A DNA stretch of 64,000 nt from Candidatus Omnitrophota bacterium (GCA_016197155.1 JACPWF010000024.1:17432-81431); one strand, 5' to 3'. Counted from the first letter of the stretch, positions 2,446-38,970 are shown. Numbers and translations: made by a program. Notes: generated by a model not told the origin, from the sequence alone.

Positions 2446-4185
2446 TTACCGTTTGTGAACGCCCTCAGCCGCCGTTTTCAAAAAATCAGCCAGCGTTTTT
2501 TGTCCCTGGTCCCCCGCCTCGCGGGACCGGATGGACACTTTTTCCGCCTTCACCTCTTTGTCTCCTAAAATGAACATGGCCGGGATCTTTTCGTTCTGCG
2601 CCCTCCGGATCCGCGCCCCGAGCGTGTCGGTGGCCGGCTGAAGCTCGGCGCGCAGTCCGGCGTCTTCTATTTCTTTCTGAATTTTTTTGGCGTACGCCTC
2701 GTGCGCCTCCGCGACGGGAATGAGGCTCACCTGAACGGGCGACAGCCAAAACGGCAGGGCCCCCGCGTAATGCTCGAGGAGTGTCCCCATGAAACGCTCG
2801 ACACTTCCCAGGATCGCGCGGTGAATCATGACCGGCCGGTGCCTTTGCCCGTCGGCCCCCGTGTATTCCAGATCAAAGCGCTCCGGCAGGGCGAAATCGC
2901 ACTGGATCGTGCTGCATTGCCACGATCGCCCGAGCGCGTCTTTAATTTTCACATCGATCTTCGGGCCGTAAAAAGCGCCTTCTCCCTCGCAAATTTTGTA
3001 TTCCACTTTTTTCGTTTTCAAAGCCCCCTCAAGCGCCGCCGTCGCGCGCGCCCAGTCCTCCCCGGTCCCGATCGAATCCTTCGGCCGCGTGCTGATCTCG
3101 ATTTCCCTTTCGTGAAACCCAAACGCGTCGAGCACGTGAAAAATAAAATCGACGACCGACCCGATTTCTTTTTCGAGGGATTCCGGCGTCGAAAAAATGT
3201 GCGCGTCGTCCTGCGTGAAATTCCGCACGCGCAAAAGGCCGTGCAGAACCCCGGATTTTTCATTGCGGCAGACGTTGCCCATTTCAAAAAAACGGAGCGG
3301 CAGGTCGCGGTAACTCCGCACCCTGGTTTTGTAAATGAGCATGTGCCCCGGGCAATTCATGGGCTTGATCGCGTATTCTTTTTCGTCCTCGGTCTTGAAG
3401 ACGAACATGTTTTCTTTGTAATAGGAATAATGGCCCGAGCGCACCCACACGTCGCTTTTCAAAATCTGCGGGCCGATCACAAACTGATACCCGCGCTTCA
3501 GGTGCTCTTCCTTGACGAACTGCTCGATCAAATGCCGGAGAAGGGCGCCTTTCGGATGATAAAAAATGAGCCCCTGCCCGCCCTCTTCCTGGATCGAAAA
3601 GAAATCGAGTTCTTTTCCGATTTTCCGGTGGTCGCGTTTCTTGGCCTCTTCGCGCACCCGCACGTACTCGTCCAATTCCTTTTTCGAGCCAAAGGCCGTT
3701 CCGTAAATTCTCTGCAGAACGGGATTGGTTTCGATGCCCTTCCAGTAAGCGCCCGCGAGGCTCGTCAATTTAAAGGCCTTGATCGCCCCCGTCGAATGTG
3801 CGTGCGGGTACTTGCAGAGGTCCGTGAAATCCCCGTCCACCACGACGGAAAGCGCCTCGCGCCCTCCGAGCGCGTCCACGGTTTCCACCTTAAACGTCTC
3901 GTTTTTTTCCTCAAAAATCCGCCGCGCCTCGGCCGCCGACACCATTTTTTTCTCGAAAATATAATCGGCCTTCACGATTTTTTCCATTTCATTTTCAATG
4001 CGTTTCAAATCCTCTTCGCCGAGCGGCGCCTCCAGCGCGATGTCGTAATAAAACCCCTCCTCGACCGGCGGCCCGAATCCGAGCCTGGCCCGGGGATAAA
4101 GGCGTTTCACCGCCTGCGCCAGCACATGCGCGCAGGAGTGGCGGATCTTGTCAAGATCGGTGTATTGTTCGGCGGTTTTTGTCAT
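2446..4185 (-). CDS. thrS: threonine--tRNA ligase (lacks the N-terminal TGS domain; begins at the editing domain)
   Basis: 579-aa ORF. Editing-domain motif RHSCAHVLAQAV, class II catalytic core (MNCPGHMLIY, FRVRNFTQDDAHIF), C-terminal anticodon-binding domain. Confidence 0.95.
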   Translation of the reverse strand: MTKTAEQYTDLDKIRHSCAHVLAQAVKRLYPRARLGFGPPVEEGFYYDIALEAPLGEEDLKRIENEMEKIVKADYIFEKKMVSAAEARRIFEEKNETFKVETVDALGGREALSVVVDGDFTDLCKYPHAHSTGAIKAFKLTSLAGAYWKGIETNPVLQRIYGTAFGSKKELDEYVRVREEAKKRDHRKIGKELDFFSIQEEGGQGLIFYHPKGALLRHLIEQFVKEEHLKRGYQFVIGPQILKSDVWVRSGHYSYYKENMFVFKTEDEKEYAIKPMNCPGHMLIYKTRVRSYRDLPLRFFEMGNVCRNEKSGVLHGLLRVRNFTQDDAHIFSTPESLEKEIGSVVDFIFHVLDAFGFHEREIEISTRPKDSIGTGEDWARATAALEGALKTKKVEYKICEGEGAFYGPKIDVKIKDALGRSWQCSTIQCDFALPERFDLEYTGADGQRHRPVMIHRAILGSVERFMGTLLEHYAGALPFWLSPVQVSLIPVAEAHEAYAKKIQKEIEDAGLRAELQPATDTLGARIRRAQNEKIPAMFILGDKEVKAEKVSIRSREAGDQGQKTLADFLKTAAEGVHKR

Positions 4186-4198
4186 TTCAATTCTTTCC

Positions 4199-4320
4199 TC
4201 CCCTTACCAAGGGGAGGTGGTCGCCACAGGCGACCAGAGGGGCAGACGCTTTGCCATCATTCGTCAGCCCATTCACCTCCCCGGTCGCCGCGGCGACCAC
4301 CCCTCCTTAAATAAGGAGGG
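4199..4320. repeat. cluster of GC-rich hairpins in the thrS 5' leader
   Basis: Seen directly: ccccttaccaaggggagg, ggtcgccacaggcgacc, ggtcgccgcggcgacc and cctccttaaataaggagg within 120 nt. The ggtcgccNNNggcgacc hairpin type recurs at 4819-4835. Confidence 0.5.
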
Positions 4321-4328
4321 GAAGATTG

Positions 4329-4406
4329 GGCAATACAGGACTCGCCCGCCAGAGGCGGGTCCGCCTTCGGCGGAAACCTTGTGACCTTTTCCATGTCAAG
4401 GAAACG
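4329..4406 (-). pseudogene. partial duplicate of tRNA-Val (anticodon arm, T arm and 3' acceptor strand) with a ~30-nt double-hairpin insertion in the T-loop
   Basis: gggcaatacaggactcg (17/17) and ttgtgaccttttccatgtcaaggaaacg (27/28) match the tRNA-Val at 4508-4580. They are split by cccgccagaggcgggtccgccttcggcggaaacc. No 5' acceptor or D-arm partner follows. Confidence 0.55.
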
Positions 4407-4507
4407 TCCGCCATCAAAGCGCCGGCGGACGCCCGCCAAAGTTCCAGTGGCGGGCGCTCCAACCCACTGCTTGTCATCCTTCAATCACTATACATCATAA
4501 TTTAAAT

Positions 4508-4580
4508 GGGCAATACAGGACTCGAACCTGTGACCTTTTCCATGTCAAGGAAACGCTCTAACCAACTGAGCTAATTGCCC
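4508..4580 (-). tRNA. tRNA-Val (anticodon GAC)
   Basis: Minus strand reads GGGCAAT TA GCTCAGTTGGTTAGAGC G TTTCC TTGACAT GGAAA AGGTC ACAGG TTCGAGT CCTGT ATTGCCC. Canonical cloverleaf. Confidence 0.9.
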
Positions 4581-4603
4581 GAATCGCTCCCAAAATCAAA
4601 TCC

Positions 4604-4689
4604 CGGTGCCGAGGGTGGGAGTTGCACCCACACGACCCGAAGATCAACGGATTTTAAGTCCGTAGCGTCTGCTGTTCCGCCACCTCGGC
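4604..4689 (-). tRNA. tRNA-Leu (anticodon TAA), long variable arm
   Basis: Minus strand reads GCCGAGG TGGCGGAAC... ACGGA CTTAAAA TCCGT TGATCTTCGGGTCGTGT GGGTG CAACTCC CACCC..CCTCGGC A. Acceptor stem is complementary. Confidence 0.8.
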
Positions 4690-4697
4690 TGAAATCG

Positions 4698-4768
4698 AGG
4701 CGCGAACCGGAGTCGCACCGGTGTACGCGGTTTTGCAGACCGCTGCCTCACTGCTCGGCCATCGCGCC
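4698..4768 (-). tRNA. tRNA-Cys (anticodon GCA), discriminator U73
   Basis: Minus strand reads GGCGCGA TG GCCGAGCAGTGAGGC A GCGGT CTGCAAA ACCGC GTAC ACCGG TGCGACT CCGGT TCGCGCC T. Perfect 7-bp acceptor stem and close match to E. coli tRNA-Cys. The T-loop reads TGCGACT (G at position 55), which is unusual. Confidence 0.75.
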
Positions 4769-4804
4769 AAAATCGACTTCCTCTTCCAAATCCTTCTGCG
4801 CTAT

Positions 4805-4865
4805 CTCGTGGTGAGCAAGGTCGCCGTAGGCGACCGCGTCGAACCACTGCTCGGCCATCGCGCCA
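4805..4865 (-). repeat. copy A of the tRNA-associated GC-hairpin element, plus a duplicated 5' 20 nt of tRNA-Cys
   Basis: Minus strand reads GGCGCGATGGCCGAGCAGTG (identical to tRNA-Cys nt 1-20), then GTGGTTCGACGCG-GGTCGCCTACGGCGACC-TTGCTCACCACGAG. The termini match the copies at 21433-21487 and 34553-34604. Confidence 0.6.
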
Positions 4866-4909
4866 ATCCTTCATTCATTTTCGAAAATTCAAAATCGAAG
4901 GCCAGTAAT

Positions 4910-5551
4910 CTAGCAGAAACGATTTTCCGAGTCAATTTGACCCGTTTTTTCGGTCTGACGGACCAAAAAATCCGCCAAACGCGCCTTCGAAAGAAGGCCG
5001 AGGTCCCGCCTTCTGCCCGCTTGATTCAAGACGATAAAATGAACTTTTTTTTCGCCGAACGGCCTTTCTTTTTTCGTCACTTTCTGCAGCACCAAAAGTT
5101 CCAGCGATTTTGATCTCAATTTTTTAAGGCCGTTCGCCAATAGTCTCCCGGACTCCAGCGCAAACCCCACAAAAATCTGATTTTTCTTCTTTGTTTTCGC
5201 CAAATCCGCCAAAATGTCCGGATTTTTCACGAACCGCACGCCCAAAAGCGTTTCTTTTTTGATCTTGGCCGGCGCAACCTTCGCGGGCCTCACGTCGCAC
5301 ACCGCCGCCGCCATGACAAGCACCTCGTGGCGCGCGATGAGCCTCTTCAGTTTTTCCCCGAGTTCGCGCGCGGTCTCCGCGTCCGCGGGACATTCGAGGG
5401 CCGTCACCGCGTGCCCCCTTTTTTTGGCCGCCGCCACCAGGGCCCGCCCCATTTCACCCGTCGAATAATTGGACAAAAAGCGCACCGGGTCCAAGGGCTC
5501 CCGCGTCGGGCCAAAGGCGATGAGAAAGCGGAGCTTGCGACGGGAAAGCAT
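4910..5551 (-). CDS. coaB: phosphopantothenate--cysteine ligase (CoaB domain, encoded separately)
   Basis: 213 aa. DPVRFLSNYSTGEMG motif, typical of the CoaB half of CoaBC. Confidence 0.85.
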   Translation of the reverse strand: MLSRRKLRFLIAFGPTREPLDPVRFLSNYSTGEMGRALVAAAKKRGHAVTALECPADAETARELGEKLKRLIARHEVLVMAAAVCDVRPAKVAPAKIKKETLLGVRFVKNPDILADLAKTKKKNQIFVGFALESGRLLANGLKKLRSKSLELLVLQKVTKKERPFGEKKVHFIVLNQAGRRRDLGLLSKARLADFLVRQTEKTGQIDSENRFC

Positions 5552-21433: not shown

Positions 21434-21484
21434 TGGATTCGACGCGCCGTGAGGAAAAGTATTTCCTCACGGCTTGCTCACCAC
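21428..21484 (+). repeat. 57-bp direct repeat, copy B (left boundary of the nitrate/Moco block); begins in the tRNA-Glu 3' end
   Basis: gggtcgtggattcgacgcgccgtgaggaaaAGTAtttcctcacggcttgctcaccac. Identical to 34548-34604 except that the 4-nt hairpin loop is reverse-complemented. Confidence 0.8.
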
Positions 21485-34547: not shown

Positions 34548-34604
34548 GGGTCGTGGATTCGACGCGCCGTGAGGAAATACTTTTCCTCACGGCTTGCTCA
34601 CCAC
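34548..34604 (+). repeat. 57-bp direct repeat, copy C (right boundary of the nitrate/Moco block)
   Basis: gggtcgtggattcgacgcgccgtgaggaaaTACTtttcctcacggcttgctcaccac. Preceded only by the last 6 nt of the tRNA-Glu sequence. Confidence 0.8.
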
Positions 34605-38756: not shown

Positions 38757-38970
38757 GGGTTCATGAATAGTATATCAAATTTTTAGTTATAAAAATAATA
38801 TAAGGGAGTAAATACCTTCGGGCCGGACTGCCGGTGAGGCTCGTCCATTCGGAAAACTTTAAGAATCAATCCTCCGCGCTCAAGCGCGAAACGAAAATCA
38901 AACGCCGGCCGCGCAGGAAGAAGCTGGTTTTAATAGCCGGCGGTCGCGTGGTAAAATACTCCCCGTAGCC

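Follow-up and report, generated by a model that had tools for sequence, protein, structure and literature searches.

A 30-bp double-hairpin element in a partial tRNA-Val copy upstream of thrS in Candidatus Omnitrophota: one copy of a dispersed, apparently undescribed palindromic family

Introduction

Within a 64,000-nt stretch of DNA from a Candidatus Omnitrophota bacterium (the whole stretch is referred to as the window), a second, partial copy of tRNA-Val(GAC) lies between a tRNA gene array and thrS, the gene for threonyl-tRNA synthetase (ThrRS), and its T-loop is interrupted by 30 nt that form two abutting hairpins. This raises the question of what a broken tRNA is doing in front of a synthetase gene. 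An earlier note on this DNA had offered three answers, namely a decayed tandem tRNA, an att-like remnant, or a leader structure co-opted by thrS, and had missed that the inserted 30 nt belong to a widespread mobile element, referred to here as DH (double-hairpin element). The feature in the window is a dead tRNA-Val fragment carrying one copy of this dispersed, polymorphic 30-bp element. In the following, labels of the form L001 denote contigs of relatives or metagenomes.

A dead tRNA-Val copy in front of thrS

On the minus strand the locus reads tRNA-Cys, tRNA-Leu(UAA), tRNA-Val(GAC) and then thrS (Table 1). Alignment with the intact tRNA-Val, some 100 nt away, resolves the copy into two perfect repeat blocks: 4327–4344 is identical to 4507–4524 at 18/18 positions, and 4380–4406 to 4529–4555 at 27/27. 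The intact gene has the four nucleotides AACC between these blocks, where the copy has 35 nt, made up of AACC, an extra T (4379/4380) and the 30-nt insert, which sits exactly at T55|C56 of the T-loop in tRNA numbering. A second partial copy with a 30-nt T-loop insertion had been described in the earlier note, and this description holds; of the limits 4329–4406 given there, the end is right, whereas the start is actually at 4327.

The statement that the copy has no 5′ half needs qualification, as that half is not simply missing. An older double hairpin with long loops stands in place of the 3′ part of the D-arm, followed by a decayed D-arm-like stretch. The junction GGCGGA|CGTTTCC (window 4407|4406), together with the loop ..TTTGAT, is common to the window and a pseudo-tRNA-Val at 531–566 of L006, which implies that part of the window pseudo-tRNA is old. 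Read by eye, 4457–4487 is plausibly homologous to the D-arm or to the stretch upstream of a tRNA-Cys fragment (GAAGGAT..).

Neither ARAGORN nor the Rfam model RF00005 (E ≤ 1) called a tRNA in 4327–4490. The 5′ acceptor strand and the D-stem are absent or decayed, so that there is no complete cloverleaf, and removing the DH in silico did not restore a full-length tRNA from the window copy. The decayed tandem tRNA is the earlier proposal that fits, as the copy is partial and non-functional and relatives carry many tRNA-Val and tRNA-Cys fragments. The appropriate annotation of 4327–4406 is a pseudo-tRNA together with a repeat element, and not a regulatory RNA.

The insert belongs to a dispersed family

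The DH consensus is TCCGCC-NNA-GGCGGA-CCCGCC-TNN-GGCGGG, i.e., two hairpins with 6-bp stems and 3-nt loops (NNA in the first, TNN in the second) within 30 nt. As single-stranded DNA (ssDNA) it folds with −13.4 kcal/mol, a stability reached by 0/200 shuffled sequences. The window contains one perfect match, the T-loop insert at 4345–4374. On L040, an unrelated contig with a homologue of the GIY-YIG nucleases discussed below, the preceding 5′ fragment of tRNA-Val(CAC) holds TCCGCCaaaGGCGGACCCGCCtcaGGCGGG in its D-loop, which equals the window insert except for loop bases.

A metagenome scan with the pattern TCCGCC-N(3-6)-GGCGGA-CCCGCC-N(3-6)-GGCGGG recovered at least 126 copies on at least 120 contigs, where a rough estimate of the chance expectation is below one match. 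Shuffled versions of the DH loci gave 0 matches at up to 5 mismatches. A single match was found in 2.9 million viral contigs, from which it follows that DH is not mainly a phage element. Its hosts include Omnitrophota, Patescibacteria and Dehalococcoidia, and thus span at least three phyla. Compensatory stem variants (TCAGCC/GGCTGA, CCAGCC/GGCTGG and TCGGCC/GGCCGA) were also detected, and a 42-nt form with longer loops occurs with many GIY-YIG genes.

Among the matches listed, nearly all are exactly 30 nt and the flanks are biased: the base at −1 is T in 88/118 copies and G in 0/118, the base at −2 is T in 85, and the base at +2 is A in 73. Target duplication is absent at every DH site for which an empty version is known, namely GGTT|CGAG in the T-loop, CAGTT|GGTTAGAG in the D-loop and GGATTTT|AAGTCC in the anticodon loop. 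A literature search found no description of a 30-bp DH, although its coverage was incomplete and an earlier account may exist elsewhere.

Insertions in protein-coding genes

Among the matches listed, about half of the copies are intragenic, with 63/119 unique copies within stop-free spans of at least 600 nt, and 45/64 of those in long open reading frames (ORFs) are in phase 0, where they encode SAxGGPAxGG or, on the other strand, PAxGGSAxGG. This phase bias shows that DH is translated rather than excised from the RNA. The interrupted housekeeping genes include those for GyrA, RecG, DnaJ, TrmD, PrmC, KsgA, ArgS, a NadB-like protein and GcvPA. In-frame tolerance in such proteins is attributed to the length of the element, since 30 bp supply ten codons for Gly, Ala, Ser and Pro. 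TrmD with DH, for instance, has about 10 extra residues at the site compared with PDB 5wyq, and two RecG orthologues are filled at the same position.

Filled and empty versions of the same gene were found side by side. GyrA of L070 has Kaiserbacteria and other Parcubacteria as its closest named relatives; among the 120 homologues most similar to it (80–86% identical), 9 are filled, at two sites two codons apart, and 111 are empty. For GcvPA of L112, with Dehalococcoidia as closest named relatives, three homologues are filled and 110 are empty, one of the empty orthologues being 92% identical to the filled query. These distributions amount to insertion polymorphism. DH is a dispersed, multi-copy mobile family that is present or absent between close orthologues and inserts 3′ of T or TT.

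Preference for tRNA loops and other hairpin loops

In 12/127 copies the flanking sequence corresponds to a tRNA, in nearly every case one with an intact gene close by, and tRNA genes make up 0.4% of that DNA. About 9% of the copies lie in D-, T- or anticodon loops, nearly always in partial tRNA duplicates, and DH shows an excess of about 20-fold in tRNA-like loops and in the loops at the tips of other hairpins. Confinement to partial duplicates would be expected if insertion into the sole functional copy were lethal. The layout of the window recurs with other tRNAs. In L079 an intact tRNA-Pro is followed after 22 nt by a 3′ partial copy with DH at T55|C56, and in L067 an intact tRNA-Leu(GAG) by a partial 3′ copy with DH at 55|56. 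The T-loop insertions of L087 and L135 are one base further along, and those of L116, L148 and L111 lie in the D-loop.

Removal of DH in silico restored a full-length tRNA in 1/127 cases, the tRNA-Leu(UAA) of L050. Here DH (2425–2454) lies in the anticodon loop after nt 35 by the ARAGORN count, at or next to the group I intron position of cyanobacterial tRNA-Leu(UAA), and the interrupted gene is accompanied by a second, partial interrupted copy and by an intact copy. A tRNA intron, whether group I or of the archaeal bulge-helix-bulge type, was considered and rejected, as removing the insert restores no tRNA in the window and coding copies are translated; 30 nt is also too short for a group I intron.

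Outside tRNAs, 13% of the DH sites occupy the tip of a host stem that is perfectly paired over at least 7 bp, compared with 0.9% of random TT sites. Most of these stems are members of a single REP-like family whose head is GTAG, and they are therefore not independent events. This host repeat, CGTAGGG-(N)CGGAGCT...AGCTCCG(N)CCC, resides on GC-rich contigs and carries DH in its apical loop (L047, L048, L062, L074, L075, L101, L113, L136, L138 and L153). A second recurrent host repeat, TTCGACA|DH|AGCTCAGGGTGAGCGG, was seen in L051, L053, L054, L085, L092 and L156.

tRNA fragments and GIY-YIG cassettes in relatives

The ThrRS proteins closest to that of the window (84–55% identical) come from metagenome-assembled genomes of Candidatus Omnitrophota, mainly from groundwater. 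The order Cys-Leu-Val-thrS is kept in about 20 Omnitrophota relatives, with spacers that vary from 10 to 1600 nt. An exact ThrRS match is encoded on one 2.1-kb contig with 38 nt upstream of the gene, which is of no use for strain-level comparison.

The spacers of L001, L003, L010/L035 and L032 contain ORFs of about 83 residues that consist of a GIY-YIG catalytic domain only (Pfam PF01541, E = 1e-12 to 1e-14); a diverged one is found in L004. The spacers of the relatives also hold many tRNA-Val fragments, which break recurrently at 17|18 in the D-loop and at 55|56 in the T-loop. In most of them the 17|18 position is precisely where an abutting pair of GC-rich hairpins stands, preceded by CAGTT and followed by GGTTAGAG. 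Such hairpin-bearing fragments were identified in L001, L003, L006, L008, L010 and L032; in L008, runs of N at 1066–1090 and 1190–1204 break the copy and make its structure unreadable there. The earlier note had considered that relatives might show a normal second tRNA-Val at this place. The closest relative, L001, does have a second copy there, but it lacks the 5′ acceptor strand and is disrupted by a double hairpin in the D-loop.

Fifteen GIY-YIG cassettes were gathered by protein similarity, independently of the DH pattern. In 11/15 of them (L001, L003, L010, L032, L038, L039, L040a, L163, L164, L165 and L166) a DH lies within a tRNA fragment at the ORF; it either precedes the start codon by no more than 30 nt or overlaps the 3′ end of the ORF. 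Of the other cassettes, L040b, L167 and L168 have no DH, and L004 has a single hairpin only. The usual order is a displaced 5′ tRNA piece with DH, the ORF, an intact tRNA and a displaced 3′ tRNA piece; in L166 one pseudo-tRNA-Ser contains DHs in both the D-loop and the T-loop. Five further GIY-YIG ORFs abut a DH among the contigs selected for DH. LAGLIDADG-type ORFs were also seen beside tRNA genes, at L001 1340–2011 in the gap between tRNA-Cys and tRNA-Leu, and at L039 646–1311 just upstream of tRNA-Leu(GAG); besides the GIY-YIG type, another class of homing endonuclease is therefore at work in these arrays. The contigs with the GIY-YIG homologues P0002–P0041 are mostly just 0.5–1.3 kb, which suggests that the repetition of tRNA pieces and hairpins makes assemblies end at these cassettes.

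In the window itself, 34 kb from the locus, 38807–38968 (+) encodes a C-terminal GIY-YIG remnant (..LVHSENFKNQSSALKRETKIK..) just upstream of a CrcB-like gene. The remnant is 50% identical over 28 residues to the GIY-YIG protein of L032 and may represent a decayed member of the nuclease family found with the double hairpins.

Another structured element, of about 100–180 nt, is found on other contigs, where it either separates tRNA-Val from thrS or follows a GIY-YIG cassette (L007 2729–2905, L001 2797–2965, L033 2596–2760 and L002 1–160, with short forms in L003 1339–1392, L010 ~805–835 and L040 884–992). It starts with the reverse complement of a tRNA 3′ end (TGGGCAATACAGGACTCGAA) and ends with a tRNA 3′ fragment from C56. 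Two cores, TGGCCGACCCGGAG and GGGCGCCGAGTCCT, are conserved, and the inner hairpins covary; its fold z-score is −7.8, and there is no Rfam match. The window was examined for this ~180-nt element, which in L001 and L007 includes an inverted tRNA fragment, and does not hold it.

Origin and mobilization

We consider it likely that 4327–4487 is a dead partial copy of tRNA-Val(GAC), one of many tRNA fragments left by repeated invasion and rearrangement of the array, with a selfish 30-bp DH precisely in its T-loop. The descent of the fragment from mobile-cassette traffic in the array has good support in the relatives, where the invaders (small free-standing GIY-YIG genes and, in one case, a LAGLIDADG gene) bring or adjoin an intact tRNA and leave displaced fragments behind.

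How DH itself moves is a more tentative matter. With somewhat less than even confidence, we propose that it is a cis element of the GIY-YIG cassettes and that solitary copies are non-autonomous derivatives moved in trans. The GIY-YIG nuclease would cut at hairpin loops that are T-rich and single-stranded, leaving the insertion to be finished by host repair or ligation. A broader proposal, that DH and the ~83-residue nuclease constitute a new kind of bacterial mobile DNA in which folded hairpin DNA is cut at T-rich loops, especially the D- and T-loops of the tRNA elbow, is more speculative, and we regard it as unlikely on balance. According to that proposal, a complete cassette would take the place of a resident tRNA gene, with hairpin-tagged fragments left behind. 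The solitary pair of hairpins would be mobilized in trans and enter, in frame, essential genes across three or more phyla.

Several points weigh against these interpretations. No GIY-YIG ORF was found at the window locus (4186–4910), and GIY-YIG enzymes are hydrolytic nucleases that, to our knowledge, are not known to act as transposases. Precise insertion of 30 bp without flanking homology is not what homing predicts. The association of DH with the nuclease genes could also be indirect, with cassettes creating expendable tRNA fragments in which a loop-preferring DH accumulates. The 120 contigs were chosen for perfect stems, so that stem conservation is partly a matter of ascertainment, and either a recent origin or gene conversion could explain why the tRNA-Val copy is 100% identical to the intact gene.

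A different mobilizer would be an HUH/Y1 transposase acting on ssDNA, such as TnpA of IS200/IS605 or RAYT, in which case DH would be an independent non-autonomous transposon and would have in common with the GIY-YIG cassettes only a liking for tRNA genes and expendable tRNA fragments. For IS200/IS605 elements, the insertion point lies 3′ of a tetra- or pentanucleotide, no duplication arises, and subterminal hairpins are what is recognised. DH resembles them in that target duplication is absent, insertion occurs 3′ of a short T-rich motif with the orientation fixed relative to that motif, and two terminal hairpins make up the element; the enrichment in hairpin loops, including those of GTAG-type REPs, also points to a folded single-stranded substrate. 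We nevertheless regard this possibility as improbable. No transposase gene was noticed beside any DH, though no systematic search was made, and the hairpins of IS200/IS605 are flanked by guide and cleavage sequences, for which 30 bp is too short. Relative to gene direction, which reflects replication direction only weakly, the orientation of DH is unbiased (29 versus 35). The presence of DH right at the ORF in most of the independently collected cassettes seems too regular for coincidence, and this regular pairing favours the GIY-YIG nuclease as the mobilizer.

As for the fragment, a direct repeat of the 3′ portion of a tRNA downstream of the intact gene is what tRNA-targeting integrative elements leave behind, and the copy might accordingly be an attR-type scar of an integrase that entered the 3′ part of tRNA-Val, the element having since been lost. 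This origin appears quite improbable. The copies are merely ~100 nt apart with no integrase ORF nearby, and the mobile genes next to the array in relatives are of homing-endonuclease types rather than integrases. In addition, 5′ fragments, tandem fragments and one fragment only 22 nt from the intact gene occur elsewhere, none of which are made by tyrosine integrases. The att-like remnant of the earlier note thus survives only in the loose sense of a mobile-element leftover at a tRNA gene, with neither an integrase nor an integrated element.

A selected cis-regulatory leader of thrS, acting as a tRNA mimic, an attenuator or by sequestration of the Shine-Dalgarno sequence, would account for the unusually structured upstream region (z = −7.3), for the location of the thrS Shine-Dalgarno within the 3′ arm of a 9-bp hairpin, and for the failure to find a terminator-like site between the array and thrS. 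Comparison of the thrS leaders of about 20 relatives showed that they are not alike, however. The hairpins and the T-loop insert are kept in 0 of ~20 syntenic relatives, the sequence upstream of thrS is unconserved even where ThrRS is 75–84% identical, and neither a T-box nor any other leader family was matched in Rfam (E ≤ 1). The anticodon GAC is that of Val, not Thr, which agrees with the earlier remark that this is no simple ThrRS operator mimic, and the insert is a mobile element that is found in coding genes too. A co-opted leader is therefore highly improbable, and DH probably has no regulatory role for thrS; at most it would add stable structure to a putative read-through transcript. 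Finally, a chimeric join of reads from repeated tRNA sequences is suggested by the repetitive region and the many short related contigs, which hint at assembler trouble, but is extremely improbable given that the same architecture recurs with different tRNAs in independent assemblies (L079, L067, L116 and L050), that the older hairpin junction is common to L006, and that conserved proteins from different projects contain in-frame copies.

Other hairpins around the thrS leader

The four further GC hairpins that the earlier note had placed beside the copy are present (4197–4321), but they actually form two more abutting double hairpins in inverted orientation. Their arms can pair with each other to give a 125-nt hairpin (z = −7.3). 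The 64-kb window contains only three abutting double hairpins, all within 4197–4374, and shuffled sequence contains none. In the double hairpin closest to thrS, the minus-strand 3′ arm of the 9-bp hairpin contains the Shine-Dalgarno GGAGG. An Rfam search (E ≤ 1) of window 3900–5200 and of L007 2300–3010 returned only the three tRNAs and chance-level matches. A genome-wide REP family in this organism was also considered and rejected, as within the 64-kb window the hairpins are found only at 4197–4460 and 4819–4835.

The hairpin CCTCCCCTT-nGT-AAGGGGAGG (4197–4217), directly upstream of thrS, holds both an anti-Shine-Dalgarno and the Shine-Dalgarno sequence. It also occurs at L109 7106–7168, before an unrelated gene in a similar three-hairpin block, and at L110 2829 and L151 2555, and it may represent another mobile hairpin family that supplies ribosome-binding sites. 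Upstream of the array, a 5′ fragment of tRNA-Cys is broken in its D-loop after CAGTG and joined to a hairpin. In L004 (2259–2316) the same fragment and hairpin stand in place of the intact tRNA-Cys and adjoin the diverged GIY-YIG ORF. Past the fragment, the window sequence looks like the region that usually precedes tRNA-Cys, in inverted form. Elsewhere in the window, the 22-nt perfect palindromes GTGAGGAAAAGTATTTCCTCAC (21449–21470, directly after tRNA-Glu) and GTGAGGAAATACTTTTCCTCAC (34569–34590) are mutual reverse complements 13 kb apart.

Table 1. Features of the thrS-tRNA locus, with positions counted from the first letter of the window.
Feature	Position	Strand	Basis
thrS (threonyl-tRNA synthetase), downstream of the array	2446-4185	-	Pfam tRNA_SAD, tRNA-synt_2b, HGTP_anticodon
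Inverted partner of 4283-4321: CCTCCCCTT-nnn-AAGGGGAGG + TGGTCGCC..GGCGACCA	4197-4236	.	fold
Second-type double hairpin GGTCGCC..GGCGACC + CCCCTCC..GGAGGGG	4283-4321	.	fold
tRNA-Val copy C56-A73: rest of T-loop, 3′ T-stem strand, 3′ acceptor strand, discriminator	4327-4344	-	18/18
DH, TCCGCC-GAA-GGCGGA CCCGCC-TCT-GGCGGG (30 bp)	4345-4374	-	perfect family-pattern match
tRNA-Val copy C25-T55: anticodon arm, variable loop, 5′ T-stem strand, T54-T55	4375-4406	-	alignment
Older long-loop double hairpin: TCCGCC-11 nt-GGCGGA, CG, CCCGCC-11 nt-GGCGGG	4405-4456	+	8- and 9-bp stems
Decayed 5′ part, D-arm-like (AGCAGTGGGTTGGAG) or leader-like	4457-4487	-	weak direct repeats with 4829-4877
tRNA-Val(GAC), intact; source or partner of the copy	4507-4580	-	ARAGORN; Rfam tRNA model 74.9 bits
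tRNA-Leu(UAA), intact	4605-4689	-	ARAGORN, Rfam; member of conserved array
tRNA-Cys(GCA), intact	4697-4768	-	ARAGORN, Rfam; member of conserved array
tRNA-Cys 5′ fragment (nt 1-20) + hairpin GGTCGCC-TAC-GGCGACC	4819-4866	-	4845-4866 identical to 4749-4770 (22/22)

Comparison with known systems

Rickettsia palindromic elements (RPEs) are roughly 100–150 bp long and known only from Rickettsia. R. felis contains 728 of them, of which 85 are in ORFs and three in RNA genes (PMC1166351). RPEs and DH are alike in being small palindromic selfish repeats in non-coding DNA, in frame within coding genes, and in RNA genes; the RPE-like features of a dispersed family, presence or absence at orthologous sites and in-frame tolerance were all found for DH. 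The likeness is one of analogy only. DH differs in its length of 30 bp made up of two abutting 15-nt palindromes, its occurrence in at least three phyla, its preference for hairpin and tRNA loops, and its link to GIY-YIG genes.

The double-hairpin elements of Allomyces mitochondria, as Paquin et al. reportedly described in 1994 and 2000, border a mobile endonuclease ORF that brings in a replacement piece of atp6. These elements lack flanking duplications (PMC2800124), and a study cited in that paper reports tRNA genes of Neurospora mitochondrial DNA that are flanked by GC-rich palindromes. Mitochondrial double-hairpin elements and G+C clusters (Allomyces, yeast, sponges and Neurospora) share with DH two adjacent GC-rich hairpins and presence or absence in close relatives. 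They are organellar and of other sequence, whereas DH resides in free-living and episymbiotic bacteria. We know of no description of mitochondrial elements that invade many housekeeping genes in frame or target the loops of the tRNA elbow.

REP/REPIN-RAYT systems and IS200/IS605 derivatives, like DH, are short, hairpin-forming, non-autonomous elements without target duplication that probably move via ssDNA. DH is much shorter, is flanked by TT...(N)A, has no GTAG head and is intragenic in about half of its copies, and it occurs itself within the loops of GTAG-type REP hairpins. The GIY-YIG ORFs of the relatives are reminiscent of SegB of phage T4, a GIY-YIG homing endonuclease in a tRNA cluster that favours its own inheritance together with that of the adjoining tRNA region (PMC2330249). 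In both cases the nuclease gene is sited among tRNA genes. SegB is a phage enzyme with a DNA-binding part, while the ORFs of the relatives are chromosomal, encode predicted nucleases of ~83 residues with the catalytic domain only, and have displaced tRNA fragments and double hairpins alongside. Size, host range, loop preference and GIY-YIG association set DH apart from all four analogues, and it appears to be an undescribed miniature palindromic selfish element.

Significance

If confirmed, DH would be among the smallest mobile DNA elements known. It sits in gyrase, RecG, DnaJ, TrmD and other essential proteins without destroying them, and it is common to the very distant uncultivated lineages Omnitrophota, Patescibacteria and Dehalococcoidia. 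For metagenomics, it is a concrete sequence tag for insertion polymorphisms and accounts for fragmented assemblies and spurious ‘second tRNAs’ near tRNA arrays. It also poses a testable question of mechanism, namely how a nuclease without a DNA-binding domain, or some other enzyme, places a hairpin pair precisely in hairpin loops. The tRNA genes of these lineages emerge as battlegrounds for GIY-YIG and LAGLIDADG cassettes that carry replacement tRNAs.

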